Program-made: the position numbers and the translations under genes | Notes under the pieces: generated by a model | Databases searched by the model: none | What the model was told of the DNA's origin: nothing | Seen by the model: the letters and a program-made list of their open reading frames with translations, nothing else | In this document: one piece after another, positions 28,754-47,269 of the stretch | Layout: each line of letters begins with the position of its first letter | Position numbering within the stretch: the stretch's first letter is position 1 | IMG/VR virus record: IMGVR_UViG_3300027804_000039 | Span: 96,001-160,000 of that record | Reading direction: 5' to 3' (one strand) | Source: a virus | Length of the DNA stretch: 64,000 nucleotides

Positions 28754-28842
28754 TGTCGCTCCTAAAGCATTTTACCATTAGGGCTACAAATAGGGCTATT
28801 AAAAACAGTCCGCCCAAGACTACATCTAGTTCTATATCCATA

Positions 28843-33705: not shown

Positions 33706-33807
33706 GCCCAAATTATATGCGATTTTGGGCAAAGTGTCAAATTGGGCTAAAGACCCTACTGTCATCATGGACTTGACAGTTTGGGTTCAAAATGCTATAA
33801 TTTGGAC

Positions 33808-34128
33808 ATGACGAAAAGAACTGCTCGTAAAGACTCAAACTATGTTATCTACGCTGCTATACATGAAGGCAATGTATACGTGGGCTTGACCCGTAAAGGC
33901 TCTACTACAGTGGCAAAGGCTGTAAAGGAGCGGTGGCGTAAGCATATTTCGCGGGCACGGCACGAAGACAGACAGTGGGTGATTTATCAGTACATCAAGG
34001 GCGGAGCATGGACTGACTGGGAACATGAGGTTTTGGCTGTGATACGCGGGCGAGCTGAGGCTTATGCATGGGAGCGCGAGTACGTCAAGCAGCATCAGCC
34101 CACACTCAACGATCAGTACATTGGTTGA
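33808..34128 (+). CDS. small GIY-YIG-like endonuclease
   Basis: VIY...YVGLT...R..H...E...LN; ATG 6 nt after -10 (leaderless). Confidence 0.7.
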   Translation: MTKRTARKDSNYVIYAAIHEGNVYVGLTRKGSTTVAKAVKERWRKHISRARHEDRQWVIYQYIKGGAWTDWEHEVLAVIRGRAEAYAWEREYVKQHQPTLNDQYIG

Positions 34129-34184
34129 CAGGGTTGTTCAATCCTGTTATAATATAGGCTACAGTAAACGAAAAGGAGCGAACT

Positions 34185-34886
34185 TTGAAATTACTTTCCA
34201 CAGCAAATCCCAAAATCCAAAAGGGTACGAAGCTTGGTTACTTGAGCTTTATCCTGCACCTCGCACCTGCTACACTCAGTGGCAAAGAGACTTGCCCTAA
34301 GCGCACCGCTGGTTGTACTAGTGCATGTCTTAACACCGCAGGGCGTGGTGGCATGTTCCGCAAGGGCGAAAACACCAACGTGATCCAGCAGGCTCGCATT
34401 CGCAAGACTAAAATGTTCTTTGAGCAGCGCGATGCATTTATGGCCCAGCTGGAGAAAGACATTAAATTGGGCATTAAGCAGGCTGCGAAGCTGGGCCTTA
34501 CTCCTGTATTCCGTTTGAATGGTACTAGCGACTTGACTTGGGAGAAGTATGGCATTATTGAAAAGTTCCCCCAAGTACAGTTCTATGACTATACTAAGGT
34601 CTTGGGCCGTAAGGTTGCACACCTGCAGAACTACCACTTGACCTTTAGCGCAGCTGATGGCAACGACGCTGATGTGGCAAAGGCTGTGGCGCAGGGCATG
34701 AATGTGGCTGCGGTGTTTGACAAGCTGCCCAGCGAGTACATGGGCAAGACTGTAATTAATGCAGACGAGCACGATTTGCGCTTTTTGGACCCTAAGGGCG
34801 TGATTGCTGGCTTGAAGGCTAAGGGCAAGGCCAAAAAGGACACTAGCGGATTCGTGCGCCGTGTGATTGACATCCAGGCAGTTTGA
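34185..34886 (+). CDS. GP88-like Cys-cluster protein
   Basis: CPKRTAGCTSACL, RLNGTSD, FYDYTK, YHLTFS; TTG start. Confidence 0.7.
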   Translation: MKLLSTANPKIQKGTKLGYLSFILHLAPATLSGKETCPKRTAGCTSACLNTAGRGGMFRKGENTNVIQQARIRKTKMFFEQRDAFMAQLEKDIKLGIKQAAKLGLTPVFRLNGTSDLTWEKYGIIEKFPQVQFYDYTKVLGRKVAHLQNYHLTFSAADGNDADVAKAVAQGMNVAAVFDKLPSEYMGKTVINADEHDLRFLDPKGVIAGLKAKGKAKKDTSGFVRRVIDIQAV

Positions 34887-34926
34887 GCTTATAATATACA
34901 CTTCAACAATGCAAATAGGAGCGACT

Positions 34927-35205
34927 ATGAACATTCAGGAAATCAACCGTGCTATCATTTCGGGTACATTCACTGCCCAAGAACTTGAAAGCATTCAGGA
35001 CGCTGTCAAGTTCGCAAGAGCCAAGACTGCCCGTGTTAACTCTGTGACCTTCCACGCAGGTGATACTGTAAAAATTACCCATGCCAAGCTGGGCGGTACT
35101 GTAGTAGGCACCATCCGTAAGATTAAGATTAAAAAGGCTGACGTGTTCATTCCCGGCAAGAACGTCACTTACAATGTTCCCCTTTCTATGTTGGAGGCTG
35201 TATGA
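34927..35205 (+). CDS. hypothetical early protein
   Basis: Own promoter and GGAGCG RBS. Confidence 0.8.
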   Translation: MNIQEINRAIISGTFTAQELESIQDAVKFARAKTARVNSVTFHAGDTVKITHAKLGGTVVGTIRKIKIKKADVFIPGKNVTYNVPLSMLEAV

Positions 35206-35429
35206 AATCAATCAAAGAAATCTTCCCTGGCATTATGATCCTGGACAAAGAGCCAGTTGAAGTACAAAACCCATTCTCGGGCGAGTGCGCGGTCTTGGAC
35301 CCTGAAGAGGTTGCTGTCTACGACTACATCAAAGGCTGTGAGCTCATGGGCGACTACACGGGTGTTCGCAAGGGCTTGGATTGGTTTAGCCGTAAGAACC
35401 CTGAAGCCTACATGACCCTGCTTGATTGA
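35202..35429 (+). CDS. hypothetical early protein
   Basis: ATGA coupling. Confidence 0.75.
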   Translation: MKSIKEIFPGIMILDKEPVEVQNPFSGECAVLDPEEVAVYDYIKGCELMGDYTGVRKGLDWFSRKNPEAYMTLLD

Positions 35430-35479
35430 CAGACTAGCCCAAACCTGTTATACTGTAGTCATAGTGAAAGGAGCGACAT

Positions 35480-35758
35480 ATGATGTTCACGCTAGAAGTA
35501 TATAAAAAGGATGCTCGTACTAAAAAGGGCGAGCGATTGGTACATAAGGCAGACCATGACATTAGCAATAGTGGCCCTGCTCTGAATATGTTCGAGCATA
35601 CTGTCAAGCATACATGGCGAGCTGGGCAGGGTTATCGTTATGAAATCCATGTGACTTATGTAACGAAAAAGAACATGATGACGGGTAATGAGTTTGTCGA
35701 GCGTTACGATACGCCTTACTACTGCTCGCCCAGTTCTGAAACCTACTGGAGCATGTAA
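35480..35758 (+). CDS. hypothetical early protein
   Basis: Own promoter and GGAGCG RBS. Confidence 0.8.
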   Translation: MMFTLEVYKKDARTKKGERLVHKADHDISNSGPALNMFEHTVKHTWRAGQGYRYEIHVTYVTKKNMMTGNEFVERYDTPYYCSPSSETYWSM

Positions 35759-35847
35759 AACAAAACCCGGCTGTCAACCGGGTTTTTCATTTGATCAGGG
35801 TTTAGATTCGACGCCCAGCCTCCACGTCCACCCCCCTTTGTTCGACA
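35756..35847 (-). ncRNA. putative small RNA 2
   Basis: TTGACT-17-TATACT (35881-35853), G-rich core, terminator AACCCGG/CCGGGTT plus T run. Confidence 0.55.
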
Positions 35848-35987
35848 TTGTTAGTATAACAAAACCCGCCCAATCAGTCAACCAAAAGAACAATACCCGA
35901 GTAAACCCTAAGGTCTTTAGCACCAAAAGGTTGACGTTTTGGGCGGACGGCGCTATAATTGCAGCATAAGTTAACAAGGAGCGCAAT

Positions 35988-36230
35988 ATGCAAACAAACT
36001 GCCTAGCCCGTGCAACGCTTGTAAAAAGCCGCAAGCTGCAAAACACACAATTCTACAAACTCAAAGTCGCGTTTAATGTAACGCAAGTTAACCCTGCTAC
36101 AGGCAAGTTTATTTTCCCTGTACAAAAACAATGCGCTTATGTAAGCGGGGACATACAAATTGACGAGCTAGGGCGTGTGCTTGTAAACGTGCAGCAAGTT
36201 ATACGCAGCAAAAACATAGAACTTGTGTAA
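35988..36230 (+). CDS. hypothetical early protein
   Basis: Own promoter and GGAGCG RBS. Confidence 0.75.
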   Translation: MQTNCLARATLVKSRKLQNTQFYKLKVAFNVTQVNPATGKFIFPVQKQCAYVSGDIQIDELGRVLVNVQQVIRSKNIELV

Positions 36231-36308
36231 GCTGTAGGGTCTTTATAGCGCACACTTGACATTTTGGGCAGGGTGCGCTATAATACAAACACTTAGAAGG
36301 AGCGTAAG

Positions 36309-36473
36309 ATGACTGTTAAAGAGCAACTGTTTGCTAAAATTGCAGAGCTGGAAAACCTGCTGTTGGAAGCTGAGTGCGACGGTGTACAGCTGGCAGAAGG
36401 TGACGATGTGCTGGGCGAGCTGACTAGCACACTAAACAGGCTTGCTGACGAGATTGACTACTACGTGGATTAA
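36309..36473 (+). CDS. 54 aa acidic early protein
   Basis: Hand-translated MTVKEQLFAKIAELENLL...DYYVD; own promoter and GGAGCG RBS. Confidence 0.75.
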   Translation: MTVKEQLFAKIAELENLLLEAECDGVQLAEGDDVLGELTSTLNRLADEIDYYVD

Positions 36474-36503
36474 TGCTATAATTGTTTTTTGAAGGAGCGA
36501 TAG

Positions 36504-36866
36504 ATGAGTAAAGTACTTTTTAGCACTAGTGGCGACGGCTACTGGAGCAACGTGCAAAAAACTGTAGAGATTACAGACATGAAGCTGGGCTATGTTAGCG
36601 ACGAGGGCGACTTTGGCGAGTTGCGAGTGTACTTTAACACTGACACTTGGGACGTTAATACAGACGGCTTAATTTACACAGACGGCCTGTTTAAACAGGA
36701 GCTGATGGCGTTTATTAAAGAGCATGGGCTTGTGGTAGACTTGTGCTACAGCGAGCAAGGTATGCAAGGCGATGACTATGTGTCGCTGGACGTGGGCAAA
36801 GACTTTTTGGACAGCTGGGCTGCTAAGTTTGGCGTAGACAGCATTAAGGAGGCTATGTATGCTTAA
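36504..36866 (+). CDS. hypothetical early protein
   Basis: Own promoter and GGAGCG RBS. Confidence 0.8.
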   Translation: MSKVLFSTSGDGYWSNVQKTVEITDMKLGYVSDEGDFGELRVYFNTDTWDVNTDGLIYTDGLFKQELMAFIKEHGLVVDLCYSEQGMQGDDYVSLDVGKDFLDSWAAKFGVDSIKEAMYA

Positions 36867-37053
36867 CGACAAACAAAACAAACTGTTACTTGAAGCTGTA
36901 GACTTACTGCACCGCGCGGATGCATTAATGCAGCAAGGGTGGGGCAAGGAAGAAGGCGAAGAGTTGTACTGTATACACAATGCCATTGAGTGCGCAGCTG
37001 ACGACATATTGGATTACATACAGGCAAACAACCCAGAGGACATGGATGCTTAA
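36859..37053 (+). CDS. small acidic protein
   Basis: Coupled ORF. Confidence 0.7.
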   Translation: MLNDKQNKLLLEAVDLLHRADALMQQGWGKEEGEELYCIHNAIECAADDILDYIQANNPEDMDA

Positions 37054-37270
37054 CAATACACTACAGTGGGCAGGCACTGTATGTCTGCTCACTATGTATG
37101 TCCTAATGAGCTTTTACCCACACCTCCACCCTTGGAACATTGCGGCTGGAGTACTTGGAGGCATTTGCTACTTGGCTTGGACTGTGCGGGTGCGGAATAC
37201 TCCACAATTAATTGTCAATGCAGTTGCAATAACCATTGGGCTTGCAGGGTTATTCAAGGCATGGGGTTGA
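37046..37270 (+). CDS. small three-TM membrane protein
   Basis: Start MLNNTLQW; three hydrophobic segments. Confidence 0.7.
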   Translation: MLNNTLQWAGTVCLLTMYVLMSFYPHLHPWNIAAGVLGGICYLAWTVRVRNTPQLIVNAVAITIGLAGLFKAWG

Positions 37271-37321
37271 CAGTTTGGGCAAGCTCTGCTATACTATAGG
37301 CTAAGTTAACAAGGAGCGAAC

Positions 37322-37594
37322 ATGTTAAACATTTCTAAAATTGTCAAAACCTACTCAGGCAAAATGGGTGGTTGTATGTGCGGGTGCCGGGGCAAGTATT
37401 CCTACACCGCAGACGGAGCTGCTAACCACGGCCCGGGCTACAATGTAGAGGACAGCGTCAACGAACGCTCTGTACGCATTATCGCTAAGAAGGTGCTAGC
37501 CAATCCCAACTGCAAGTGGGAGGACAACATTGCCTACGTCGAGGACAAGGTTAAAGGCCGCATCCAAGTAATCTTTTTTAAGGAAGCCCTGTGA
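37322..37594 (+). CDS. hypothetical early protein
   Basis: GCMCGCRGKY; own promoter and RBS. Confidence 0.8.
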   Translation: MLNISKIVKTYSGKMGGCMCGCRGKYSYTADGAANHGPGYNVEDSVNERSVRIIAKKVLANPNCKWEDNIAYVEDKVKGRIQVIFFKEAL

Positions 37595-37839
37595 TTACTG
37601 CTGAAGCACTTCAAACCCTCATCAACTACCGTGCCCCTGAACTGACACGCTTGGTCAAGGAGGGCGGGTACAAAGGCCCTGCGTTCAGCTCATGCCGCTT
37701 CCTGGGCATTACTAACGGCGGGCAACTGTGCTACCTTGCTGTCTTCTTAGTGGAGGGTGGCACTGACAGCGCAAAGGTGTTTGTTACCCACAGAGCTGGT
37801 AGGGTTTCTGCAGAGGTTGACAGGAACTCAGTTTGGTAA
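37591..37839 (+). CDS. hypothetical early protein
   Basis: GTGA coupling. Confidence 0.7.
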   Translation: MITAEALQTLINYRAPELTRLVKEGGYKGPAFSSCRFLGITNGGQLCYLAVFLVEGGTDSAKVFVTHRAGRVSAEVDRNSVW

Positions 37840-37871
37840 TATAATATACACATACTAACAAGGAGCGAACC

Positions 37872-38108
37872 ATGCGAGTAGAAGACCTTATTGCAGAACT
37901 GCAACTCATGCCACAGGACGCAGAAGTCCACTTCCAATACAATTACGGAGACCACTGGCGCACCCAGGTTGCTCCTACTGTCGACAGCGTAGAGATGGGT
38001 CTTGTCAAGTACAGTGACTACCACCGTATGCCCAAAGTCGTAGAACCCGACTGGGACGAAGAGGACGCTGACCAAGTTGACGGCAAACAAGTTGTCTTAA
38101 TTGGTTGA
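37872..38108 (+). CDS. hypothetical early protein
   Basis: MRVEDLIAELQLMPQDAEV; own promoter and RBS. Confidence 0.8.
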   Translation: MRVEDLIAELQLMPQDAEVHFQYNYGDHWRTQVAPTVDSVEMGLVKYSDYHRMPKVVEPDWDEEDADQVDGKQVVLIG

Positions 38109-38168
38109 CAACTAACCCAAATCCAGTTATAATACACACATCAACAGCAACTTAGGAGCGAAACTAAA

Positions 38169-38636
38169 ATGGCTACACGTTCAACTATTGCCCTGGAATA
38201 CGCAGACGGTACAGTGGACAAGATTTACTGTCACTGGGACGGCTACTTGGATAACAACGGCAAACTCCTGTTTGACAACTATAAGGACCCGTTCAAAGTG
38301 CAACGCCTTATGGACTTGGGTGACGTAAGCTCACTGGGCCCTAACATTGGCGACAAGCACGACTTCGACTGCCCTTTCCCTTACGGTACTCCTGAGTATG
38401 TTAAGTGGACTGACGACAAGCGCGAAGTGACTACGTTCTACGGACGCGACCGTGGCGAAACTGGTACGGGTGCCCAGCGTTATAAGGACTATGCGGACTA
38501 TCGTGCCAACGCACAGTTTGAGGAATACAACTACATCCTCCGCAAAGACGGCAACTGGTATGTGGAGTTTTACGGTGACTTTGACGGCTTGCTGTCTGAG
38601 GCATTTGAATTTCAGCGAGCACAGGAGGAAGCATGA
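38169..38636 (+). CDS. hypothetical early protein
   Basis: MATRSTI...YCHWDGY; own promoter and RBS. Confidence 0.8.
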   Translation: MATRSTIALEYADGTVDKIYCHWDGYLDNNGKLLFDNYKDPFKVQRLMDLGDVSSLGPNIGDKHDFDCPFPYGTPEYVKWTDDKREVTTFYGRDRGETGTGAQRYKDYADYRANAQFEEYNYILRKDGNWYVEFYGDFDGLLSEAFEFQRAQEEA

Positions 38637-38821
38637 CAGGCTTTCAAAGCAAAAGGGCTTCGGCCCTTGACAAGCTCAACACAGAATGGATTGACTTGCG
38701 TGAACGAGTGCTAGAACAAATCGTCAAAGATGTTAACGACGGCGACTTGACTGCCATCGAAGAACTGTTGGTCTACTGCGACGAAGAAGCTATGAAACAA
38801 TTTCTACCGGAGGAAGCATGA
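38633..38821 (+). CDS. small acidic protein
   Basis: ATGA coupling. Confidence 0.7.
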   Translation: MTGFQSKRASALDKLNTEWIDLRERVLEQIVKDVNDGDLTAIEELLVYCDEEAMKQFLPEEA

Positions 38822-38997
38822 GTAAACTAGCAGAGCTGGCCTACGACATTGAGCAACTGTACATTGAAGGCCTGCACCCTACGAAGATTGCTCGCGAACT
38901 GAACTGTCCTTTGAGTATAGTATACGATTGGCTTGAAGCGCAGAGCCTAGACGAAGGTACAGAAGAAGCCAGCCCGTTCAACACTATTAACAGCTAG
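38818..38997 (+). CDS. 59 aa helix-turn-helix-like protein
   Basis: Hand-translated, not in ORF track: GLHPTKIARELNCPLSIVYDWL. Confidence 0.7.
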   Translation: MSKLAELAYDIEQLYIEGLHPTKIARELNCPLSIVYDWLEAQSLDEGTEEASPFNTINS

Positions 38998-39048
38998 TTC
39001 GCTCCTAGCAACCCTGAGGGGGCCCAGGGCATTGGCCCCCATTCTTTT
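38993..39048 (+). terminator. anti-RBS hairpin followed by switchable terminator
   Basis: GCTAG-TTCGCTC-CTAGC, then GGGGGCC/GGCCCCC plus ATTCTTTT, with competing CCCTG/CAGGG stem. Confidence 0.65.
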
Positions 39049-39102
39049 GGTTGACAACAACTTCTTTTGGTGCTATAATATACACATACTAAGGAGAGCG
39101 AC

Positions 39103-39336
39103 ATGGCAACTATCCAGATTGACGGACTAAACAAGACCCAGCGAGCCCTAGCAGACATCATGTGGGGCATGGACAGCAAGGATCAGGTAACTGCATTCAT
39201 CAGCAGCCTACGTGGACAGCAACAGCGTGATGCCCAAACCGTCCTGGAATTGATGCTGTTGGCCATTTGGGACGAGTGCGAAGATACCCTGGAAGCCAGC
39301 CAGGTTATTGGTCAGTTCCGGTTGACTGGTATCTAA
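39103..39336 (+). CDS. hypothetical early protein
   Basis: Own promoter; AAGGAGAGCGAC RBS variant. Confidence 0.8.
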   Translation: MATIQIDGLNKTQRALADIMWGMDSKDQVTAFISSLRGQQQRDAQTVLELMLLAIWDECEDTLEASQVIGQFRLTGI

Positions 39337-39379
39337 TTTGGTGCTATACTATAGGCTAAGTTAAACAAAAGGAGCGACA
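39337..39379 (+). repeat. 43-nt promoter-leader repeat, copy 1
   Basis: Identical to 41647-41689. Confidence 0.9.
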
Positions 39380-39380
39380 G

Positions 39381-39644
39381 ATGAACATTGCAACTATTGA
39401 GCAGTATGTGGATGGTAAAAACAAGTGGGGCGCCCTGTTTGGCAACAAACCTCTGAGCCTGCTGGATGCAGCAGACCGCCAGAAGATTGCAGACAGCATT
39501 GACGCAGACCTCAGCCCTGAGAACTTGACCTGCGATGGCGAACTGCCTCGCTCACAAGTTCAGCAACGCTACCAGTTCCTGACTCGTTGTGCCCAGGAGT
39601 TGAAGAGCATTGATCCTAATGTAACCTTTTACGAATATGGCTGA
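39381..39644 (+). CDS. hypothetical early protein
   Basis: Own promoter and RBS. Confidence 0.8.
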   Translation: MNIATIEQYVDGKNKWGALFGNKPLSLLDAADRQKIADSIDADLSPENLTCDGELPRSQVQQRYQFLTRCAQELKSIDPNVTFYEYG

Positions 39645-39729
39645 ACTTATCACTTACATCCTGCTCCGCATCATCCAGGTAGGTATCTTGGTGTTTGCGG
39701 TAGCAGTATTCATCAACGGTTTTTTCTAA
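39637..39729 (+). CDS. 30 aa single-TM peptide
   Basis: Hand-translated MAELITYILLRIIQVGILVFAVAVFINGFF. Confidence 0.5.
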   Translation: MAELITYILLRIIQVGILVFAVAVFINGFF

Positions 39730-39738
39730 GGAGCGAAT

Positions 39739-40341
39739 ATGCCTAATTGGTGCAATAACACAGTAGAAGTATATCATCCGGACCCATCCAAGCTCAAGGC
39801 TTTGGTAGAGGCGTTTAACGAAGGTAAGTTCTGTAATCATATCATTCCAGTGCCCAAAGAGCTCACTGAGACTGTAGCAGGACATTGCGGCGAGGGTTAT
39901 GCTCAGGACTTGAATCAGTTCAAGATGGAACTGAACCTAAAATACTTTGGTGCCAAAGACTGGTATGACTTCTGTGTTGCACGATGGGGCACTAAATGGG
40001 ATGTAGGCGGCGACAATGCCTACAGCGATCCTGTAGAGCTCAAAGAAGGCCAGAATGATGTGACCTTGGGCTTTGATAGTGCATGGAGCCCTCCTGTTGG
40101 TGTATATGAGGCTATGGTTGAGCAAGGCTTCAGCGTTCGTGCATACTACTATGAGCCTGGCATGGCATTTGCTGGTGTATGGTGGGACGGTGATGATAAT
40201 TACTTTGAATACGGTGGCTTGACCAGCGAGCAGATCAAAGAGGAACTGCCCAGCGATTTGGACGAGTGCTTTGGCATCAGTGAGTCAGTCGCAGAATGGG
40301 AAGCAGAAAACGAAGAAGAGGAAGAACATGACAGCAAGTAA
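39739..40341 (+). CDS. DUF1281/YubB-like ferredoxin-fold protein
   Basis: MPNWCNN, WYDF...WGTKW, FDSAWSPP, YEPGMAFAG. Confidence 0.75.
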   Translation: MPNWCNNTVEVYHPDPSKLKALVEAFNEGKFCNHIIPVPKELTETVAGHCGEGYAQDLNQFKMELNLKYFGAKDWYDFCVARWGTKWDVGGDNAYSDPVELKEGQNDVTLGFDSAWSPPVGVYEAMVEQGFSVRAYYYEPGMAFAGVWWDGDDNYFEYGGLTSEQIKEELPSDLDECFGISESVAEWEAENEEEEEHDSK

Positions 40342-40391
40342 AGAAGCAATGGATCAACTAGACGCTATCATAGCTCGATGGATTAAGGATC

Positions 40392-40667
40392 GTGAGTAAG
40401 CTCGAATTCTACTGTAGACCATTGGTTGCCTTTGATCCTAACAACAAGGATCATAGGCGCTGGTACTACCAATTCATTGAATATGGCGGCTGGGGCAAGT
40501 GCCCGGTTAGGTTCATTTGCCCTGAGGATTCGGGCTCAGACTTGACCATTATGATCCGCAACCAATTGATTGATTTCTATGTCCGAAAGGAGTTCGAACG
40601 AGCAAACAAGAAAACGGTTGTCCAAAATGTAAAGAAAACGGTTGACAAGCAACCAAAAAAGCGTTAA
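40392..40667 (+). CDS. hypothetical early protein
   Basis: 91 aa ORF. Confidence 0.7.
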   Translation: MSKLEFYCRPLVAFDPNNKDHRRWYYQFIEYGGWGKCPVRFICPEDSGSDLTIMIRNQLIDFYVRKEFERANKKTVVQNVKKTVDKQPKKR

Positions 40668-40727
40668 AATACGAACATGCTAAGGAAACTGGCATATAAC
40701 TTAAACCACAGAAAGAGAGATACACAC

Positions 40728-41096
40728 ATGGCTACAGATAAACTTTTTACCGTTTGCGGCGTTTCAAAACATCCCGACCTGGGCTATAAGGTTCGATTTG
40801 CTACCGACATCATGCGAATCAAGAACCTCGCCAAGTCAGGTCATGAGGACATTCGTCTTGCTGAGCTGGACACTGCTGTCACCAAGTATGAAGCAGTTAC
40901 ACAGATCAAGGGCATGGACGAGTTTCAAGATGCCGCAGCACAGTCTGCAATCGCTGAGTACCTTGAGGACAATGCTCCTAAGGCACCTAAGGCTAAGGCA
41001 GCTCCTAAAGCTAAGACCGTCCCTGCTGCTAAGGCTCCTAAGGCCAAGGCTGCTGCTAAGACTGTTGACGCAGACCTCGAAGACGCTCCATTCTAA
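40728..41096 (+). CDS. protein with Lys/Ala/Pro-rich (H1-like) tail
   Basis: APKAPKAKAAPKAK...; likely start MATDK. Confidence 0.7.
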   Translation: MATDKLFTVCGVSKHPDLGYKVRFATDIMRIKNLAKSGHEDIRLAELDTAVTKYEAVTQIKGMDEFQDAAAQSAIAEYLEDNAPKAPKAKAAPKAKTVPAAKAPKAKAAAKTVDADLEDAPF

Positions 41097-41099
41097 GCA

Positions 41100-41303
41100 A
41101 TGCGGTACGGGTGCTCTCTAAGTGACGATTACACACCTAACCGTGTGGTCATCCGTGACTTTGAGAGTTCACCCAAAGGCCGCGTTCTATGCGTCATTGC
41201 TAGGGACAACCTGCACGAAGCGAACCAAATAGCACAGAATCTTTGTGACCTTTTAAACCATCAATACCAAAATGAGCTGGACTCAATACGAAGTATGGGC
41301 TGA
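41100..41303 (+). CDS. hypothetical protein
   Basis: 67 aa ORF. Confidence 0.6.
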   Translation: MRYGCSLSDDYTPNRVVIRDFESSPKGRVLCVIARDNLHEANQIAQNLCDLLNHQYQNELDSIRSMG

Positions 41304-41460
41304 ACTAGACGGCCATCAGGAACTTCTTGAAACTACACACAGTAAGAAAGAAGCTATTCAGATAGCAGAGAAACACTTTAATGACGGGTGCGACTTTGTT
41401 GAAGTATTTGAAGAAACCGCAGATGGCGACTACTCATCCATCAAACAGCTAAGTAGATAA
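41272..41460 (+). CDS. small acidic protein
   Basis: 62 aa ORF. Confidence 0.65.
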   Translation: MSWTQYEVWAELDGHQELLETTHSKKEAIQIAEKHFNDGCDFVEVFEETADGDYSSIKQLSR

Positions 41461-41466
41461 CACTTA

Positions 41467-41544
<78 letters not shown>

Positions 41545-41547
41545 ATT

Positions 41548-41624
41548 CTGCCCGTAGCTCAACTGGATAGAGCAACAGCCTTCTAAGCTGTAGGTCGGGG
41601 GTTCGAGTCCCTCCGGGCAGGCCA
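41548..41624 (+). tRNA. tRNA-Arg(TCT)
   Basis: Acceptor CTGCCCG/CGGGCAG, arm ACAGC-CTTCTAA-GCTGT, GTTCGA, encoded CCA. Confidence 0.93.
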
Positions 41625-41646
41625 CTTTCGGTTGACACACTCCTTG

Positions 41647-41689
41647 TTTGGTGCTATACTATAGGCTAAGTTAAACAAAAGGAGCGACA
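41647..41689 (+). repeat. 43-nt promoter-leader repeat, copy 2
   Basis: Identical to 39337-39379; near copies at 41945 and 37288. Confidence 0.9.
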
Positions 41690-41691
41690 CA

Positions 41692-41919
41692 ATGGCATTC
41701 ACCCTAGAATCTCGAGACAACTACGATACCCGTCACGGCGGCCCTTTTGACCGTGGATCAGCTGACAGTTACTATGGGCGTGGTCGTAACCCTCACTACT
41801 ATGTTGGTGGCACTGGCACCAGCGAGCGAGTAGAGACCCTAACACCCGCAGAAGTCCAGGCCTACCTAGCAGGCTACCAGTACAACGAGCAGTTTGGCGA
41901 TAAGAAAGACTGGGGCTAA
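41692..41919 (+). CDS. hypothetical early protein
   Basis: HGGPFDRGSADSYYGR; own promoter and RBS. Confidence 0.8.
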   Translation: MAFTLESRDNYDTRHGGPFDRGSADSYYGRGRNPHYYVGGTGTSERVETLTPAEVQAYLAGYQYNEQFGDKKDWG

Positions 41920-41984
41920 ACGGTTGACAACTTCTGCCCAATTTGCTATACTGTAGGCTAAGTTAAACAAAAGGAGCGAACCTT

Positions 41985-42380
41985 ATGATGCTAGTAATCG
42001 ACACGCAGTACATGGAAAACTACGGCGCCCACGATTGGGACGGCAAGGGCGAGTGCCCACAGTACTGGAAAGCCAAGGGCGGCAGTGAGTTCAAGGTTAC
42101 TGGCATTCCCCGCAACGTCGATGTAGACCATGTGCTGTTCATGCTGGGCCAGGAAGTTCAGTGGAGTGACAACGGTTCAACCAGCACCGTTATTGGCACA
42201 CACATCGAGGAGGATGACTACCTCAGCTGGTTTGAGAAGTCACAGATGGAGTACGATGGTCGTGTGGTGTTCGCAGAGCCCAGCATCAGCTATGCAGACC
42301 TTTGCATTGAAGAGCAGGCACGTCAGCAAGAATACGCTGAAATTGCCGCAGACCTTGACGCAATCTACTACGGAGCTTAA
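41985..42380 (+). CDS. hypothetical early protein
   Basis: ENYGAHDWDGKGECPQYWKAKGG; own promoter and RBS. Confidence 0.8.
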   Translation: MMLVIDTQYMENYGAHDWDGKGECPQYWKAKGGSEFKVTGIPRNVDVDHVLFMLGQEVQWSDNGSTSTVIGTHIEEDDYLSWFEKSQMEYDGRVVFAEPSISYADLCIEEQARQQEYAEIAADLDAIYYGA

Positions 42381-42381
42381 T

Positions 42382-42570
42382 ATGAAATCAGCAGGCTTTT
42401 TGTTGGCAGTTGGATTCCTACTTACCTTTGGTGCTGTAGGCGGTATTGAAAACGATGGTCCACTGGTGGACTGTTTGATTGTAGCAGTCCTGGGCCTGGC
42501 CATCATGGGCTGTGGATCTTTGATGTTGCACAAGGCCAAGCGCCCGGTTGACAACCCCACGCTTTGGTAA
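42382..42570 (+). CDS. two-TM membrane protein
   Basis: Likely start MKSAGF. Confidence 0.7.
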   Translation: MKSAGFLLAVGFLLTFGAVGGIENDGPLVDCLIVAVLGLAIMGCGSLMLHKAKRPVDNPTLW

Positions 42571-42608
42571 TATAATACATACTTCAACAACGCAAACAGG
42601 AGCGAAAC

Positions 42609-42959
42609 ATGTCTGCACTCAACTACACCAAAGAGCAAGTCGAGCAAATCGTCAAAGAAGCACAGACTGCTGCATACAAGGCCGCAATGGAGTTCTTCTA
42701 CGATAAGTTGGGCGGCAAGGACCAATATGCTTGTGGCTTTGCTTGGGTTAACATTTACAAAGTCCGAGGCAACACCAAAGTTGGCATGGCTCTGAAAGCT
42801 GCAGGCATTCGTCCCAGCTATCAAGGCGGCCTGCAGATGTGGAACCCAAGTGGCATGGGTGTGCAGAATGTGGACACTCTGGAAGCGGGTGCAGAAGCAG
42901 CAGCGGCAGTGTTTACCAAGTATGGTTTTGAAGCCTACGCAGGTAGCCGACTAGATTGA
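42609..42959 (+). CDS. hypothetical early protein
   Basis: CGFAWV...EAGAEAAAAV; own promoter and RBS. Confidence 0.8.
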   Translation: MSALNYTKEQVEQIVKEAQTAAYKAAMEFFYDKLGGKDQYACGFAWVNIYKVRGNTKVGMALKAAGIRPSYQGGLQMWNPSGMGVQNVDTLEAGAEAAAAVFTKYGFEAYAGSRLD

Positions 42960-43014
42960 CACAAGAGCCGCAAGGCTCTATAATTAATGTTTTAAACACA
43001 CAGGAGCGCAATAA

Positions 43015-43908
43015 ATGGGACGACCCGCTGGTAGCAAGAACAAGGTTATGACTCTGGAAAGCCTTAAGAGCATGGCTGTAGAATCTAAGAGCCTAGAGCA
43101 GGCCAAGATTGAAAAGGACCTCAGCAAAGAGTCTGACGAAAGCATTATGGCACGTTTGGGCCAACGTTTTGAAATCCTTGAAGACATGACTCGCGCTGTA
43201 AAGAAAGGCGACGTTCGTGCAATGATTGTAACTGGTCCTCCAGGCGTTGGCAAGAGCTTTGGTGTTGAAAAGGTTCTGGGCAAGCATGATGTGTTTGCTG
43301 ATGTAGCCAATGACTCAAAGCTGAAAAAGTACGAAGTAGTCAAGGGCGCCATGTCAGCCATTGGCTTGTACAAGAAGCTGTATGAGTTTAGTGATAAGAA
43401 GTGTATCCTAGTGTTTGATGACTGTGACAGTGTGCTATTGGACGACTTGAGCCTTAACATTCTAAAGGCTGCACTAGACTCTAGCAAGAAGCGTACCATT
43501 CACTGGAACACTGACAGCAGACTGTTACGTCAAGAAGGTGTGCCCAATAGCTTTGAGTTCAAGGGCGGTGCTATCTTTATCAGTAACATCAAGTTCGATC
43601 ACGTTAAGAGCAAGAAGCTGCGTGACCATTTAGAAGCATTGGAAAGCCGTTGCCACTACTTGGACTTGACTATTGATACTGTACGTGAGAAGCTGCTGCG
43701 TATACGTCAAGTGGTACGTGACTGTGGCATGCTGGATGACTATGCATTTGATGATAGTACTAAGACAGAAGTAGTAGAGTTTATAGCTGCCAACGCTGCT
43801 CGTATGCGTGAGCTGAGCCTGCGTATGGTGCTAAAGGTAGCGGACCTGCGTAAGAGTATGCCCACTAACTGGCAGGCCGTTGCTGAAGTAACTTGTATGA
43901 GGCACTAA
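43015..43908 (+). CDS. AAA+ family ATPase
   Basis: Walker A GPPGVGKS, Walker B LVFDDCD, ALESR arginine finger. Confidence 0.85.
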   Translation: MGRPAGSKNKVMTLESLKSMAVESKSLEQAKIEKDLSKESDESIMARLGQRFEILEDMTRAVKKGDVRAMIVTGPPGVGKSFGVEKVLGKHDVFADVANDSKLKKYEVVKGAMSAIGLYKKLYEFSDKKCILVFDDCDSVLLDDLSLNILKAALDSSKKRTIHWNTDSRLLRQEGVPNSFEFKGGAIFISNIKFDHVKSKKLRDHLEALESRCHYLDLTIDTVREKLLRIRQVVRDCGMLDDYAFDDSTKTEVVEFIAANAARMRELSLRMVLKVADLRKSMPTNWQAVAEVTCMRH

Positions 43909-43922
43909 GACCTCAGCAAGGT

Positions 43923-44009
43923 GGCCACTGACCCGATTCGCTCCCGGTGATGTGGTCGAGTTGTGCCCCAGGATATCCGATTCGCTCCCGGTGTCCTGGG
44001 GATTTTTTT
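43923..44009 (+). ncRNA. two-hairpin RNA element with ATTCGCTCC loops; second hairpin is a terminator
   Basis: 17-nt direct repeat CCGATTCGCTCCCGGTG (43933, 43977); 13-bp stem plus T7. Confidence 0.7.
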
Positions 44010-44204
44010 GATTGAATGATCGAAAAAAGATTTCGAAATGGTGAGGGGGGTCGGGGTATATATTATATTTTTGTTGTTTTTTACAACAGCGCAAGCCTAA
44101 ATTTTCACCCCATATAGGTGTAAAATCACCACCCTGAGAGGAAATAGTAGCTATTTTAAATTTTTCGCGCACCAATTTTTTTAGGCTACAGGACCCATTC
44201 TGGA

Positions 44205-44858
44205 CTAAACGTCCGCGCCCAGTCTACGCAACATTGTATAAGCATTCTTCTTAAATGCTTCAAATCCTGCGCTATGTGCCACTGGAGCCAGTCCTTGATT
44301 GATGTCTGCAATAGCAAACTTTCCCACTCCAATTTCTCTAACATCATTTAGCTGTGTTCTAATATCGCCTATGGTTGCGTCCAGGCGTTCAGCAGTACGT
44401 TTTAAGTTGGGCATACCATAGTACTTGCTGATACCGTTTTCTGTACCTTTGTTAATCCATCCATCCGGACCAATGCCAAATATAGGATACCACTTGCCAG
44501 CTGCTACACCTTTTTTACCTGCATCTCCAGTACTCAAATAAAATGGTACACGCACACCGTCCACTGGCACTATTACTATAGCTCGCCCGTCATAGTTAAC
44601 CACTGGTACCGCACGTTCCACAAAAGTATTCTTTGACTTGTCCCATATTTTAGTTGCCATGGGCTCTAGCTTGACTCCAGCTTGACTGGCTCTTGATGCT
44701 ATTTGATCAGCTAATATAGCCACCTTTGGTGCTGCAGTTGCTGCTGCATTGCCCATTTTAGGCACAACCTTTGTGGCTGTGTCAGCAGTCTTTTGTGCAA
44801 ATGTCTTCATTAGAGCATTTACCATAGCTGCGTTTTCAATGATTTCTTTGACTTTCAT
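44205..44858 (-). CDS. hypothetical protein, possible head-internal protein
   Basis: Likely start MKVKEIIEN at 44858. Confidence 0.7.
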   Translation of the reverse strand: MKVKEIIENAAMVNALMKTFAQKTADTATKVVPKMGNAAATAAPKVAILADQIASRASQAGVKLEPMATKIWDKSKNTFVERAVPVVNYDGRAIVIVPVDGVRVPFYLSTGDAGKKGVAAGKWYPIFGIGPDGWINKGTENGISKYYGMPNLKRTAERLDATIGDIRTQLNDVREIGVGKFAIADINQGLAPVAHSAGFEAFKKNAYTMLRRLGADV

Positions 44859-44861
44859 GGT

Positions 44862-44871
44862 TAAATATTTA
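44862..44871. promoter_or_regulatory. palindromic bidirectional late-type promoter
   Basis: TAAATATTTA between divergent ATGs at 44858 and 44873. Confidence 0.7.
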
Positions 44872-44872
44872 T

Positions 44873-45115
44873 ATGCAACAATACTATGTACTAACTTTAG
44901 AACCCAGATGTGGCGAAGTGTTTCGCTGGATAGAGTCACATCAACTGGACTACGAAGTACACTTGAATCGTACACGCTTTTGGATACCCAAAGATAGTCT
45001 GTTACAAACAGAGTTTTTACTGCGTTTTAGTGAATGCTGTGGTACTGTGGATGAATCATTAGATACACTTACTGGCATGCCCAAAGTTGGTGTGCTAGAT
45101 TCTAGGCCCAAGTAA
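44873..45115 (+). CDS. Trp-rich paralog family member (distant)
   Basis: RWIESH...RFWI...TEFLLRFS. Confidence 0.65.
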   Translation: MQQYYVLTLEPRCGEVFRWIESHQLDYEVHLNRTRFWIPKDSLLQTEFLLRFSECCGTVDESLDTLTGMPKVGVLDSRPK

Positions 45116-45353
45116 GCAAAAATAGCGTACGGTGTTTTTCCCATTTGAAGGCTACGCAGGCTTCCCATGAGTTATGATCTCTTTGTGTAGCCCATGCCCA
45201 GCGAGTCCAGTGGCCGCCCACATATTGATTTAACCATTGTTCCATGGTGAGATAACCTTGTATCCAATCCATTTGGATCTGTGGTTGAGGCCAGGGTGCA
45301 GTGGCTATGTAGTCAAAGTCATGATACTCTGGCAAATAGTAGCTGGTAGGCAT
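45102..45353 (-). CDS. Trp-rich paralog family member
   Basis: QWLNQYVG...FKWEKHRTLFLLTW; likely start MPTSYY. Confidence 0.7.
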   Translation of the reverse strand: MPTSYYLPEYHDFDYIATAPWPQPQIQMDWIQGYLTMEQWLNQYVGGHWTRWAWATQRDHNSWEACVAFKWEKHRTLFLLTWA

Positions 45354-45405
45354 ACAAATATTTATGGCTGAGCTAACAGAACACACCAACTTGTGCGTAC
45401 CGTTA

Positions 45406-45493
45406 CCGCTTCGCGGCTTGTTAGCTTTTAGCCGGCGCTTCGCGGGTGCGAATTTTTTGCTGAGCTTCGCTGTAAAAAAGCGCGGAGCTTCGC
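45406..45493. repeat. four GCTTCGC mini-palindromes
   Basis: 45408, 45437, 45464, 45487 in a non-coding gap. Confidence 0.75.
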
Positions 45494-47269
45494 TTAGGCT
45501 GTTACACCTTTAAGCACAAAGAAGCTGATTTGTGGAGCATCTGATACTGTAATAGCTACTGGAACATACACACTGATACGGAAACTGCCGTTGGTTACTT
45601 GTGTTACTTGTGGTATGTACACGTTGGCAGCGTTGGTACCAGTTACTTTGTTTACTATGATTTGGTCGTCTGTAGTAACCAATGTGTTGTTGACTGTAAA
45701 GCTGAATGTACCTGCTGATGCTGTGGTGTTGAACAAGGTAATACGTCCTGACAACTTGTTCAAACTAACTGCTGTGGTTCTGTTGGTGCCTTGTGTTACT
45801 GTACCGCCTTGACCTGTAGCATAACCCATGCCGCCGGTGTTGTTTACTCTCAACTGTGTAGTCAATGTGCCCACGCTGACAATATTGGTTGATCCTGCCC
45901 AAGTGCTGATGGCTGTGTTTTCCACGTTGCCCAGACCTACTGATGATTTTGATACGCCGCTTACTGTGCCTGTAAACGTTGGGTTTTCAAACATTGTGGC
46001 TTTGCTTTCATTGGTTACATTACCCAAGCCAACCATTGCAGCTGTGATGCCCGATACTGTGCCAGTAAATGTTGGGCTGGCGCTGGCAACCAATACTCCG
46101 CCTGTGCCTGTAAATCCTGTTATACCTCTAGACAATAGTGTAACTGTAGTACCAGTGAAAGTTGGATCTGTAAACATGGTAGCCTTGCTTTCGTTGGTCA
46201 CTTGATCTAGTCCTACCATGGCGGCAGTGATGCCTGTAACTGTGCCGGTAAATGCAGGGCTTTCTATTGTGGCATAGATATTCAAAGGCGGTGTGTTGGT
46301 AAAGTTTGTATAGTCTAGGTAGTATACACCATCGTTACCGTCTAGTGTGTCGGCATCCACGTTAGAACCGCCCGCCGCAATATCAGCTGCAGGTTTCCAA
46401 GCTGTACCGTCCCATTTTAACACCTGCCCTGTTGTGGGCGGTGTGCTGGCTGTGTCTACGTCGCTCAATGCGTTAATACTTGCACCAATAACACCCGTCA
46501 CAGTCAAGTTACCTGAAATGCTGGTGCTCTTGCCCAGAGTAATTGTGCTAACACTGGTACTGATAGTTGAGCCACTGAATGTAATCAAACCTGTAGTAGC
46601 CACAGCTGATCCGCCAATAGTAGATCCTGCTGGTAAGTTAACAGTACCCGAGCCTAGGTTTACAGTTCCTGTAAACGTAGGATTGTTAAACATTGTGGCT
46701 TTGCTTTCGTTGGTTACGTTGCCTAACCCTAAACTAGTGGCAGTTATACTAGTAGGGCGCCAACGACTGGCTGCTGTGTCCCAACGTAGTACTTGATTAT
46801 TGGTAGGTGCATAAGCACCGCTGGCATCCACATCAGCCACATCATCTAAACTGTTGATGCTGGTTCCGCCTGCACTACTGATAACTCCGTTAGTGATAGT
46901 AATGGTTGTTCCGTCAACTTTTACCAATCCCAGTGTGCTGGTAGTAGCTGTGCCTATAACAGGCTTGTCAGTTAGGTCGTTGTAACTGCCAGAAAAGATA
47001 GTTGGGCGGTTGGTTAGATCCAAGTAACTGCCTGAAACTGCCACAGGACTGAATACTGGAATAGTGGGTTTGTTCTGTATGTTGGCCCAGTCTAGTTGAG
47101 TAGCTACCCAATCTCTACTGGCCAAGGTAGTTCCGCCCTTGTCAGCGCCGTTGAATATTCTCAGCGTTTCTCTATTGCGGTCGTAGAACAGTTCTCCTAG
47201 ACTGCCACCAATGGCATCTAGACTTTGTTGTGTTTTGGCTTGTAATCTTAGACTACGTAATACGGACAT
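45494..47269 (-). CDS. tail-fibre-like virion protein with internal repeats
   Basis: Three copies of GLxxVTNESKATMFxxPTFTGT and two of L.DV...PT..QVL.WD. Confidence 0.7.
   Translation of the reverse strand: MSVLRSLRLQAKTQQSLDAIGGSLGELFYDRNRETLRIFNGADKGGTTLASRDWVATQLDWANIQNKPTIPVFSPVAVSGSYLDLTNRPTIFSGSYNDLTDKPVIGTATTSTLGLVKVDGTTITITNGVISSAGGTSINSLDDVADVDASGAYAPTNNQVLRWDTAASRWRPTSITATSLGLGNVTNESKATMFNNPTFTGTVNLGSGTVNLPAGSTIGGSAVATTGLITFSGSTISTSVSTITLGKSTSISGNLTVTGVIGASINALSDVDTASTPPTTGQVLKWDGTAWKPAADIAAGGSNVDADTLDGNDGVYYLDYTNFTNTPPLNIYATIESPAFTGTVTGITAAMVGLDQVTNESKATMFTDPTFTGTTVTLLSRGITGFTGTGGVLVASASPTFTGTVSGITAAMVGLGNVTNESKATMFENPTFTGTVSGVSKSSVGLGNVENTAISTWAGSTNIVSVGTLTTQLRVNNTGGMGYATGQGGTVTQGTNRTTAVSLNKLSGRITLFNTTASAGTFSFTVNNTLVTTDDQIIVNKVTGTNAANVYIPQVTQVTNGSFRISVYVPVAITVSDAPQISFFVLKGVTA

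Follow-up and report, generated by a model that had tools for sequence, protein, structure and literature searches.

Two adjacent RNA hairpins encoded directly behind the last early gene of an uncultured freshwater giant phage present in their loops a nine-nucleotide sequence that is complementary to an extended Shine-Dalgarno sequence, here called the tag, in front of many early genes of the same phage. Among related phages, tag and loop have switched together or have been lost together. Because two separately conserved short sequences thereby stay complementary through changes, functional RNA-RNA complementarity of loop and tag is very probably the best explanation for the element.

The twin hairpins behind the early genes

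The window, i.e. the whole stretch of 64,000 nucleotides that was analysed, comprises bases 96001-160000 of one 191,095-bp IMG/VR phage record (39.9% G+C), the completeness of which was estimated at about 50%. The source phage is an uncultured freshwater giant phage of about 380 kb with complete relatives of 364-383 kb, and the DNA runs containing the stretch are freshwater and wetland metagenomes. A megablast search with positions 42000-46000 gave no match among isolated phages. The nearest isolates are Pseudomonas phage PA5oct and its kin, which show 46% protein identity in the ATPase encoded beside the hairpins. The gene neighbourhood is that of a typical large lytic phage and includes genes for a virion protein, a DnaB-like helicase and further helicases. 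The hairpin features of the window are the following:

43923-43957, plus strand: hairpin 1, apex CCCG-ATTCGCTCC-CGG, no U-run; from the RNA fold, with homologues in relatives that have covarying stems
43936-43944, plus strand: anti-tag of loop 1, ATTCGCTCC, the reverse complement of GGAGCGAAT
43966-44001, plus strand: hairpin 2, 13 pairs, one U bulged; forms the stem-loop of the intrinsic terminator that closes the early array; from the RNA fold
43980-43988, plus strand: anti-tag of loop 2, ATTCGCTCC
44003-44009, plus strand: T7 run of the terminator, with one A between hairpin 2 and the run
38993-39009, plus strand: third anti-tag hairpin, a weak 4-bp hairpin GCTA-GTTCGCTCC-TAGC (anti-tag at 38998-39005), directly 3' of the stop codon of the ORF 38818-38997

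The initial annotation of this DNA had described two hairpins after the last early gene that display ATTCGCTCC in their loops, the second of them with a 13-bp stem and a run of seven T residues. Both were recovered at these positions, and both loops are unpaired in the predicted fold of 43905-44015, which has a free energy of -39.0 kcal/mol for the plus strand and -31.9 kcal/mol for the minus strand. The twin-hairpin fold is modestly better than that of shuffled sequences (z = -1.7). The two hairpins have a 17-nt direct repeat, CCGATTCGCTCCCGGTG, in common. ATTCGCTCC itself occurs three times in the window versus 0.29 times expected, namely at 43936 and 43980 on the plus strand and, on the other strand, at the ribosome binding site at 39730. 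The proposal that G-U pairs favour folding of the plus-strand RNA agrees with the energies in the window; it did not extend to the family of 114 hairpins described below, in which the strand fold energies of -14.92 versus -14.88 kcal/mol do not differ.

Hairpin 2, being rich in G+C and followed by a U-run, is an intrinsic terminator, and hairpin 1, which is without a U-run, is not. No strong terminator is present on the plus strand of the array before position 43966. Since hairpin 2 is the only strong plus-strand terminator of the array, most early mRNAs are predicted to end in both hairpins. Behind the third anti-tag hairpin come a further hairpin and a promoter, and the same element is found in the related loci L011 and L007.

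Rfam returned only two tRNAs at the gathering threshold, and nothing meaningful was obtained at E-values up to 10 over 43850-44250. Resemblance to known loop motifs was also considered. A U-turn (YUNR) was rejected, as UUCG in the loop fits this motif and the loops of the other two lineages described below do not. A T-loop was likewise rejected: the tRNAs of the phage itself have GGTTCGATCCC, one mismatch from the motif, and the hairpin is without equivalents of A58 and the G53-C61 pair. Likeness to the 3' tail of 16S rRNA (GAU...CUCC) is partial.

On the 3' side of the terminator (44010-44060), the window contains the palindrome TCGAAAAAAGATTTCGA and the G-rich string GGTGAGGGGGGTCGGGGTATATATTATA. 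Strings similar to these, 'cgaaaaa..tttcga' and 'GGTCGGGGT-TAT', lie 3' of the terminator in the related loci L012, L013, L059-L063, L066 and L068, and this palindrome and G-rich feature is conserved. Assembled contigs from two freshwater metatranscriptomes cover parts of the region from 34.4 to 44.2 kb, one of them ending at 43935; being assemblies, these contigs are uninformative on RNA ends, strand, level and small RNAs, and the missing cover past 44208 does not count as evidence.

The tagged promoter-proximal genes of the early array

The early array is predicted to be transcribed from about 17 sigma-70-type promoters that match the consensus at 11-12 of 12 positions. Downstream of them lie the tagged ribosome binding sites and, as the last gene of the array, an ATPase gene that served as an anchor in the comparison with relatives. 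The features of the array, together with the one tagged site of the window outside it, are:

33773-42984, plus strand: array of about 17 near-consensus promoters TTGACA-17-TATAAT/TATACT, located 20-25 nt 5' of the tagged ribosome binding sites
34175-34181, plus strand: tagged site GGAGCGA(A), gene 34185-34886 (Pfam GP88)
34918-34924, plus strand: tagged site GGAGCGA
35470-35476, plus strand: tagged site GGAGCGA
35978-35983, plus strand: tagged site GGAGCG(C)
36299-36304, plus strand: tagged site GGAGCG(T)
36494-36500, plus strand: tagged site GGAGCGA
37313-37319, plus strand: tagged site GGAGCGA(A)
37862-37868, plus strand: tagged site GGAGCGA(A)
38155-38161, plus strand: tagged site GGAGCGA(A)
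39371-39377, plus strand: tagged site GGAGCGA
39730-39738, plus strand: tagged site GGAGCGAAT, all 9 nt complementary to the loop; the sole tagged early site without a -10 box
41681-41687, plus strand: tagged site GGAGCGA
41973-41979, plus strand: tagged site GGAGCGA(A)
42599-42605, plus strand: tagged site GGAGCGA(A)
43003-43008, plus strand: tagged site GGAGCG(C), last early gene
43015-43908, plus strand: last early gene, AAA-type ATPase (nrdC.10-like); anti-tag hairpins lie behind it in all relatives
28756-28762, minus strand: tagged site GGAGCGA outside the early array, 130-aa gene

The fifteen GGAGCG sites described before, twelve of which read GGAGCGA and seven GGAGCGAA, were all located between 34175 and 43003 on the plus strand, each with a start codon 5-10 nt further 3' and an ORF of 54-297 aa, and the seven GGAGA sites cited for late and core genes are also real. 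GGAGCGA is found 16 times in the window versus 2.9 times expected, a number reached in none of 100 shuffled sequences. A count over the whole record, as had been proposed for the tag, bore out its enrichment: CG follows the GGAG-type sites at 14 of 21 positions within the early array versus 3 of 70 elsewhere (Fisher p = 6e-9).

The tag marks the promoter-proximal cistron of the early cassettes. A -10 box lies upstream of 13 of the 14 tagged window sites and is absent at 6 of the 7 untagged early sites. Across relatives, the tag is tied to promoter-proximal leaders with an odds ratio of 14 (p = 3e-32, 457 distinct leaders). Its position is about +15 to +22 from the predicted transcript start. 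The stretch from the -10 box to the tag differs between cassettes and GGAGCGA is unchanged, which argues for separate selection on the three extra bases.

Two parts of the earlier description had to be narrowed. The tag does not span the whole early regulon, since it is restricted to promoter-proximal cistrons and to 14 of the 21 GGAG-type sites, and it is not confined to early genes either, as it is also found at genes for CsgF, a curlin-repeat protein and a 1164-aa protein and at 28762 on the minus strand of the window. The first three belong to a curli-like phage module at 64800-72600 of the related genome L378, outside the window, which also encodes CsgG and a FecR-domain protein; the 1164-aa protein has an F5/8 type C domain. 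Three genes of this module carry the GGAGCGAA tag together with a flanking CCG that lengthens the match to the hairpin apex; for the CsgF leader the match reaches 13 nt and -21.6 kcal/mol.

Pfam searches with ten proteins (eight of the early array, the ATPase and the product of one adjacent opposite-strand gene) assigned two of them, GP88 for the first tagged early gene at 34185-34886 (E = 5e-42) and the AAA ATPase. No RNA-binding domain was detected among these ten proteins, most of which are ORFans. The early array also contains genes for tRNA-Met(CAT) and tRNA-Arg(TCT) at 41467-41624; within the metatranscriptome contigs, depth peaks at these two genes, probably through cross-mapping from other organisms.

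Conservation and co-variation in related phages

With the ATPase gene as query, 80 related IMG/VR loci with 61-88% protein identity were retrieved, and a second query with the ATPase of the most divergent of these loci yielded a sister group of 41 loci. Exact-pattern scans of viral and prokaryote collections had also been tried. They gave at least 119 and at least 120 matches, respectively, which is about the chance level for 14-15-mers at that collection size. The prokaryote matches were spread over unrelated high-GC taxa, and the scans were discarded as of no use for host or distribution.

The 3' flank of the ATPase gene in loci L001-L070 contains between one and three hairpins whose loop reads (G)ATTCGCTCC(C). 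Altogether, 114 distinct hairpins were collected from about 70 related contigs, and their loop is invariant and their stems differ. Twenty-four of them, aligned free of gaps and termed class A, show compensatory changes in all seven outer pairs. In this alignment 96.5% of the cells are paired, compared to 13-41% with slid partners, and the covariation score was matched by none of 500 shuffles. The orientation of the element is also strict, with TCGCTCC occurring 107 times in 57 distinct 3' flanks and GGAGCGA once. A run of at least five T residues lies 3' of 47 family hairpins and a run of at least five A residues lies 5' of only one. This ratio of 47:1 argues that the element is read on the early-gene strand.

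The class-A apex is invariant over 21 nt, CCAACG-ATTCGCTCC-CGG-YAA, including a 4x4 internal loop. This exceeds what pairing with the tag needs, and thus the apex may additionally be constrained by its structure or by binding of a protein. Furthermore, in L001-L070 and L338-L377 the first anti-tag frequently lies across the ATPase stop codon or directly next to it, reading gTGATTCGCTCCCac in one lineage and TAATGCCCTC or TAGCCCTC in the other. With an anti-tag at this position, a terminating ribosome would mask it.

In the sister group, the promoter-proximal leaders read GAGGGCA(A), and the flank after the ATPase stop codon contains the reverse complement, (T)GCCCTC. When the loci are sorted by the sequence of their leaders, the anti-tags in the flanks separate accordingly:

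Leader GGAGCG: 62 loci, CGCTCC in the flank 118, GCCCTC in the flank 0
Leader GAGGGC: 20 loci, CGCTCC in the flank 1, GCCCTC in the flank 53

One long-branch locus, L374, provides a further pair, with 22 leaders reading GGAGCAA and three loops reading TTGCTCC. Three tag/loop pairs are therefore found across the lineages, GGAGCGA/UCGCUCC, GAGGGCA/UGCCCUC and GGAGCAA/UUGCUCC. In unconstrained folds, 56 of 65 anti-tags of the GAGGGC and GGAGCA lineages, taken together and with L374 included, lie in hairpin loops. A chance match of the three extension bases would be expected once in 64 per lineage.

Placed on a tree of the ATPase, which was inferred by a quick maximum-likelihood method, tag and loop are of matched types in 74 of 87 rows, most of the remaining rows being short loci whose few leaders do not allow scoring, and both elements are absent in two sub-clades. 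In all, there are at least two switches to a new matched pair, along with two joint losses of tag and loop. In the loci with mixed tags (L350-L352 and L058), no second type of anti-tag was found within the sequence examined. The initial annotation had proposed that the loops pair with the tag and had listed missing conservation of the loops or missing covariation with the tag in relatives among the findings that would refute it. The comparison supports the proposal on each count: the loop is invariant within the family, the stems change in a compensatory manner, and tag and loop switch or disappear together.

Proposed mechanism, alternatives and known systems

In the mechanism that we propose, the roughly 17 strong sigma-70-type promoters would fire into one array, and the early transcripts would share the hairpin 3' end. 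The 9-nt loop AUUCGCUCC on each hairpin would recognize GGAGCGA(A)(U), in which the Shine-Dalgarno core is lengthened by a private 3-5 nt and which is found at the promoter-proximal cistron of almost all early promoter cassettes. Loop and tag could base-pair within one mRNA, between its 3' end and its 5' leader, or in trans. The trans route would make use of terminator fragments that are stable and persist longer than the bodies of the mRNAs, and the delay so produced would lead to early shut-off. The duplex would cover the ribosome binding site, and its predicted stability exceeds that of the pairing of the ribosomal anti-Shine-Dalgarno sequence with the tag. With the accumulation of early RNA, translation of the tagged cistrons would be lowered or stopped, and untagged messages of the GGAGA type would be spared.

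The predicted energies are in line with this mechanism. The loop-leader duplex amounts on average to -13.9 kcal/mol for tagged leaders versus -7.8 kcal/mol for untagged ones. Pairing with the anti-Shine-Dalgarno sequence gives -8.1 and -8.7 kcal/mol, respectively, calculated with the canonical 16S sequence, which may not be that of the host. As the predicted duplex lies over the Shine-Dalgarno sequence and is stronger than canonical anti-Shine-Dalgarno pairing, translational repression or shut-off of the tagged cistrons would be the likeliest outcome, and we regard it as probable. Two qualifications follow from the arrangement of the elements. Only promoter-proximal cistrons are tagged, and thus the shut-off would not be regulon-wide. 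Moreover, the RNA comes from the very transcripts it is proposed to repress, which calls for the assumption of some timing mechanism.

Pairing of loop and tag might be real and yet serve another purpose, such as the 5'-3' protection of early mRNAs, e.g. against a GGAG-directed nuclease, or the silencing of a superinfecting phage with the same tag, in which case the tag diversity would reflect escape. We consider this rather unlikely, although it draws on the same co-variation data as the repression reading. At least three orthogonal tag/loop pairs in related lineages are what antagonistic diversification would lead one to expect, the tag is near the 5' end of the transcript, at about +15 to +22 from the predicted start, and the c4 RNAs of phages P1 and P7 reportedly set heteroimmunity in a similar way. 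Pairing across the Shine-Dalgarno sequence, however, would block initiation regardless of any such purpose, and the sequence gives no pointer to superinfection. Searches for RegB (PF10715) and RegA (PF01818) gave no match in the 191-kb record, which is about 50% complete, and control genomes gave none either, so that these searches are uninformative as to such a nuclease; the analogy to T4 RegB drawn in the initial annotation found no support in the record. In a specific form of this idea, the tag/loop pairs act as orthogonal 'address codes', each phage lineage labelling its immediate-early messages with its own Shine-Dalgarno extension and producing an RNA that recognises this address alone; besides self-regulation, a resident infection would silence the early genes of superinfecting phages of the same address, and the tags would diversify antagonistically. 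This form appears unlikely to us. It would resemble P1/P7 heteroimmunity, but for a whole gene class.

It is very unlikely that tag and anti-tag are instead a double-stranded DNA site for a phage DNA-binding protein, situated at +15 to +22 of the early promoters and a second time at the terminator. On DNA, a sequence and its reverse complement amount to one site, and a shift in the specificity of the protein would change both, so that co-variation is predicted here as well; the conservation of the class-A apex beyond the loop would also fit. This explanation leaves the strict 107:1 orientation at sites other than ribosome binding sites unaccounted for. Furthermore, the motif sits in the loop of hairpins with covarying stems, and in all three lineages it holds a Shine-Dalgarno core (GGAG or GAGG) at ribosome-binding-site distance from the ATG.

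Recognition of the hairpins by a phage or host RNA-binding protein, with the complementarity of loop and tag being incidental, is to our judgement highly improbable. The invariant 21-nt apex with its conserved internal loop is indeed typical of protein-recognised hairpins. Incidental complementarity cannot, however, account for three matched pairs and two joint losses, and none of the ten proteins tested, most of them ORFans, has an RNA-binding domain. Finally, an ordinary tandem terminator next to promoter-Shine-Dalgarno cassettes homogenised by recombination, the match being the remnant of an inverted cassette, is extremely improbable: hairpin 2 is a terminator, the early array resembles the PeSL cassettes discussed below in its strong sigma-70 promoters and its Shine-Dalgarno sequence at the cassette end, and contigs of relatives in the DNA run break at tagged sites, but the leader from the -10 box to the tag varies with the tag constant, the loops are invariant over more than 100 different stems, and tag and loop changed together in other lineages.

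If the pairing of loop and tag works as proposed, widespread uncultured aquatic giant phages control a temporal gene class via a private Shine-Dalgarno extension, and the conserved bases of early ribosome binding sites that are unable to pair with 16S rRNA would be accounted for. The reader of the extension would be an RNA built into the operon's own terminator, a job for which T4 uses proteins, and a phage example would join the regulators borne by 3'UTRs. The three natural orthogonal tag/loop pairs may also be possible parts for orthogonal translational control. A literature search found no published description of the element. The promoters and the Shine-Dalgarno cores are canonical. What is new is that such an element occurs in a phage, that a private lengthening of the Shine-Dalgarno sequence delimits a promoter-linked class of genes, that the element is part of the terminator of the operon itself, and that orthogonal variants exist in nature.

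The closest counterpart of the early array itself are the PeSL cassettes of T4-type phages, in which strong sigma-70 early promoters are repeated, with a Shine-Dalgarno sequence at the cassette end and small ORFans (PMC2839356, PMC4122927). The array shares with them the repeated strong promoters with a tagged Shine-Dalgarno sequence and a start codon at the cassette end. It also shares breakpoints, as contigs of relatives in the DNA run have joints from deletion or replacement precisely at tagged sites, linking 35468 to 42015, 37312 to 39049, 39370 to 42621 and 41679 to 42621. These joins at tagged cassettes indicate PeSL-like modular shuffling of early ORFans. With respect to stem-loops, the array contains few terminator-like hairpins on the plus strand, one stem-loop pair preceding the promoter at 39051. 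PeSL cassettes are described as promoter-terminator recombination modules, and unlike in the phage studied here, no loop complementary to the cassette Shine-Dalgarno sequence has been reported for them. The T4 protein RegB is an endoribonuclease acting on the GGAG of early mRNAs. It shares with the element the class-wide silencing of early messages via their ribosome binding sites, which is proposed here, and differs in being a protein nuclease rather than an RNA.

The design of the loops is closest to that of the 3' hairpins of RNAIII and of RsaE-type sRNAs, the C-rich loops of which, including that of a terminator hairpin, bind the Shine-Dalgarno regions of several mRNAs (PMC2837412, PMC2790875). 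Those RNAs, however, are stand-alone bacterial sRNAs directed against generic G-rich Shine-Dalgarno sequences, with neither a class tag nor co-varying variants. In the cuckoo or CcsR RNAs of Alphaproteobacteria, two to four adjacent hairpins share a C-rich loop motif that resembles the anti-Shine-Dalgarno sequence, and their stems are very variable (PMC4615179). The phage element likewise has adjacent hairpins, one shared loop motif and variable stems. The cuckoo/CcsR loop CCUCCUCCC is a general anti-Shine-Dalgarno look-alike in chromosomal bacterial RNAs, whereas the phage loop is AUUCGCUCC, with no match to the Rfam models of that family at E-values up to 10, its targets can be recognised as a promoter-linked class of genes, and between lineages the loop changes along with the tag.

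In the icaR mRNA of Staphylococcus aureus, a UCCCC motif in the 3'UTR pairs with the Shine-Dalgarno sequence of its own 5'UTR, which results in translational repression (PMC3868564); RNase III cleavage has also been demonstrated there, and the case serves as a precedent for pairing in cis. In the phage, too, an anti-Shine-Dalgarno motif in the 3'UTR would complement the Shine-Dalgarno sequence of the same mRNA, as judged here by sequence only from their location on the same strand and the absence of a strong terminator in between. The icaR case concerns a single gene and a generic Shine-Dalgarno sequence, in contrast to the many nested transcripts with a common 3' end, the private tag and the tandem hairpin loops of the phage.

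For phages P1 and P7, Citron and Schuster are said to have described in Cell in 1990 the c4 antisense RNA, the exposed loops of which pair with the ribosome binding site region of icd-ant. The c4 RNA lies upstream of icd-ant, its single target, in the same transcription unit, has a different loop for each of two sites and is excised by RNase P. Like c4, the phage hairpins have loops that complement the ribosome binding site region of their targets, with matched changes of loop and target between related phages (three pairs). They differ from c4 in lying downstream of all tagged genes, in their identical loops and in a tag that is carried by a dozen or more genes. Overall, the architecture of the element is closest to that of the cuckoo/CcsR RNAs, and its logic is closest to that of the icaR 3'UTR and the P1/P7 c4 RNA.
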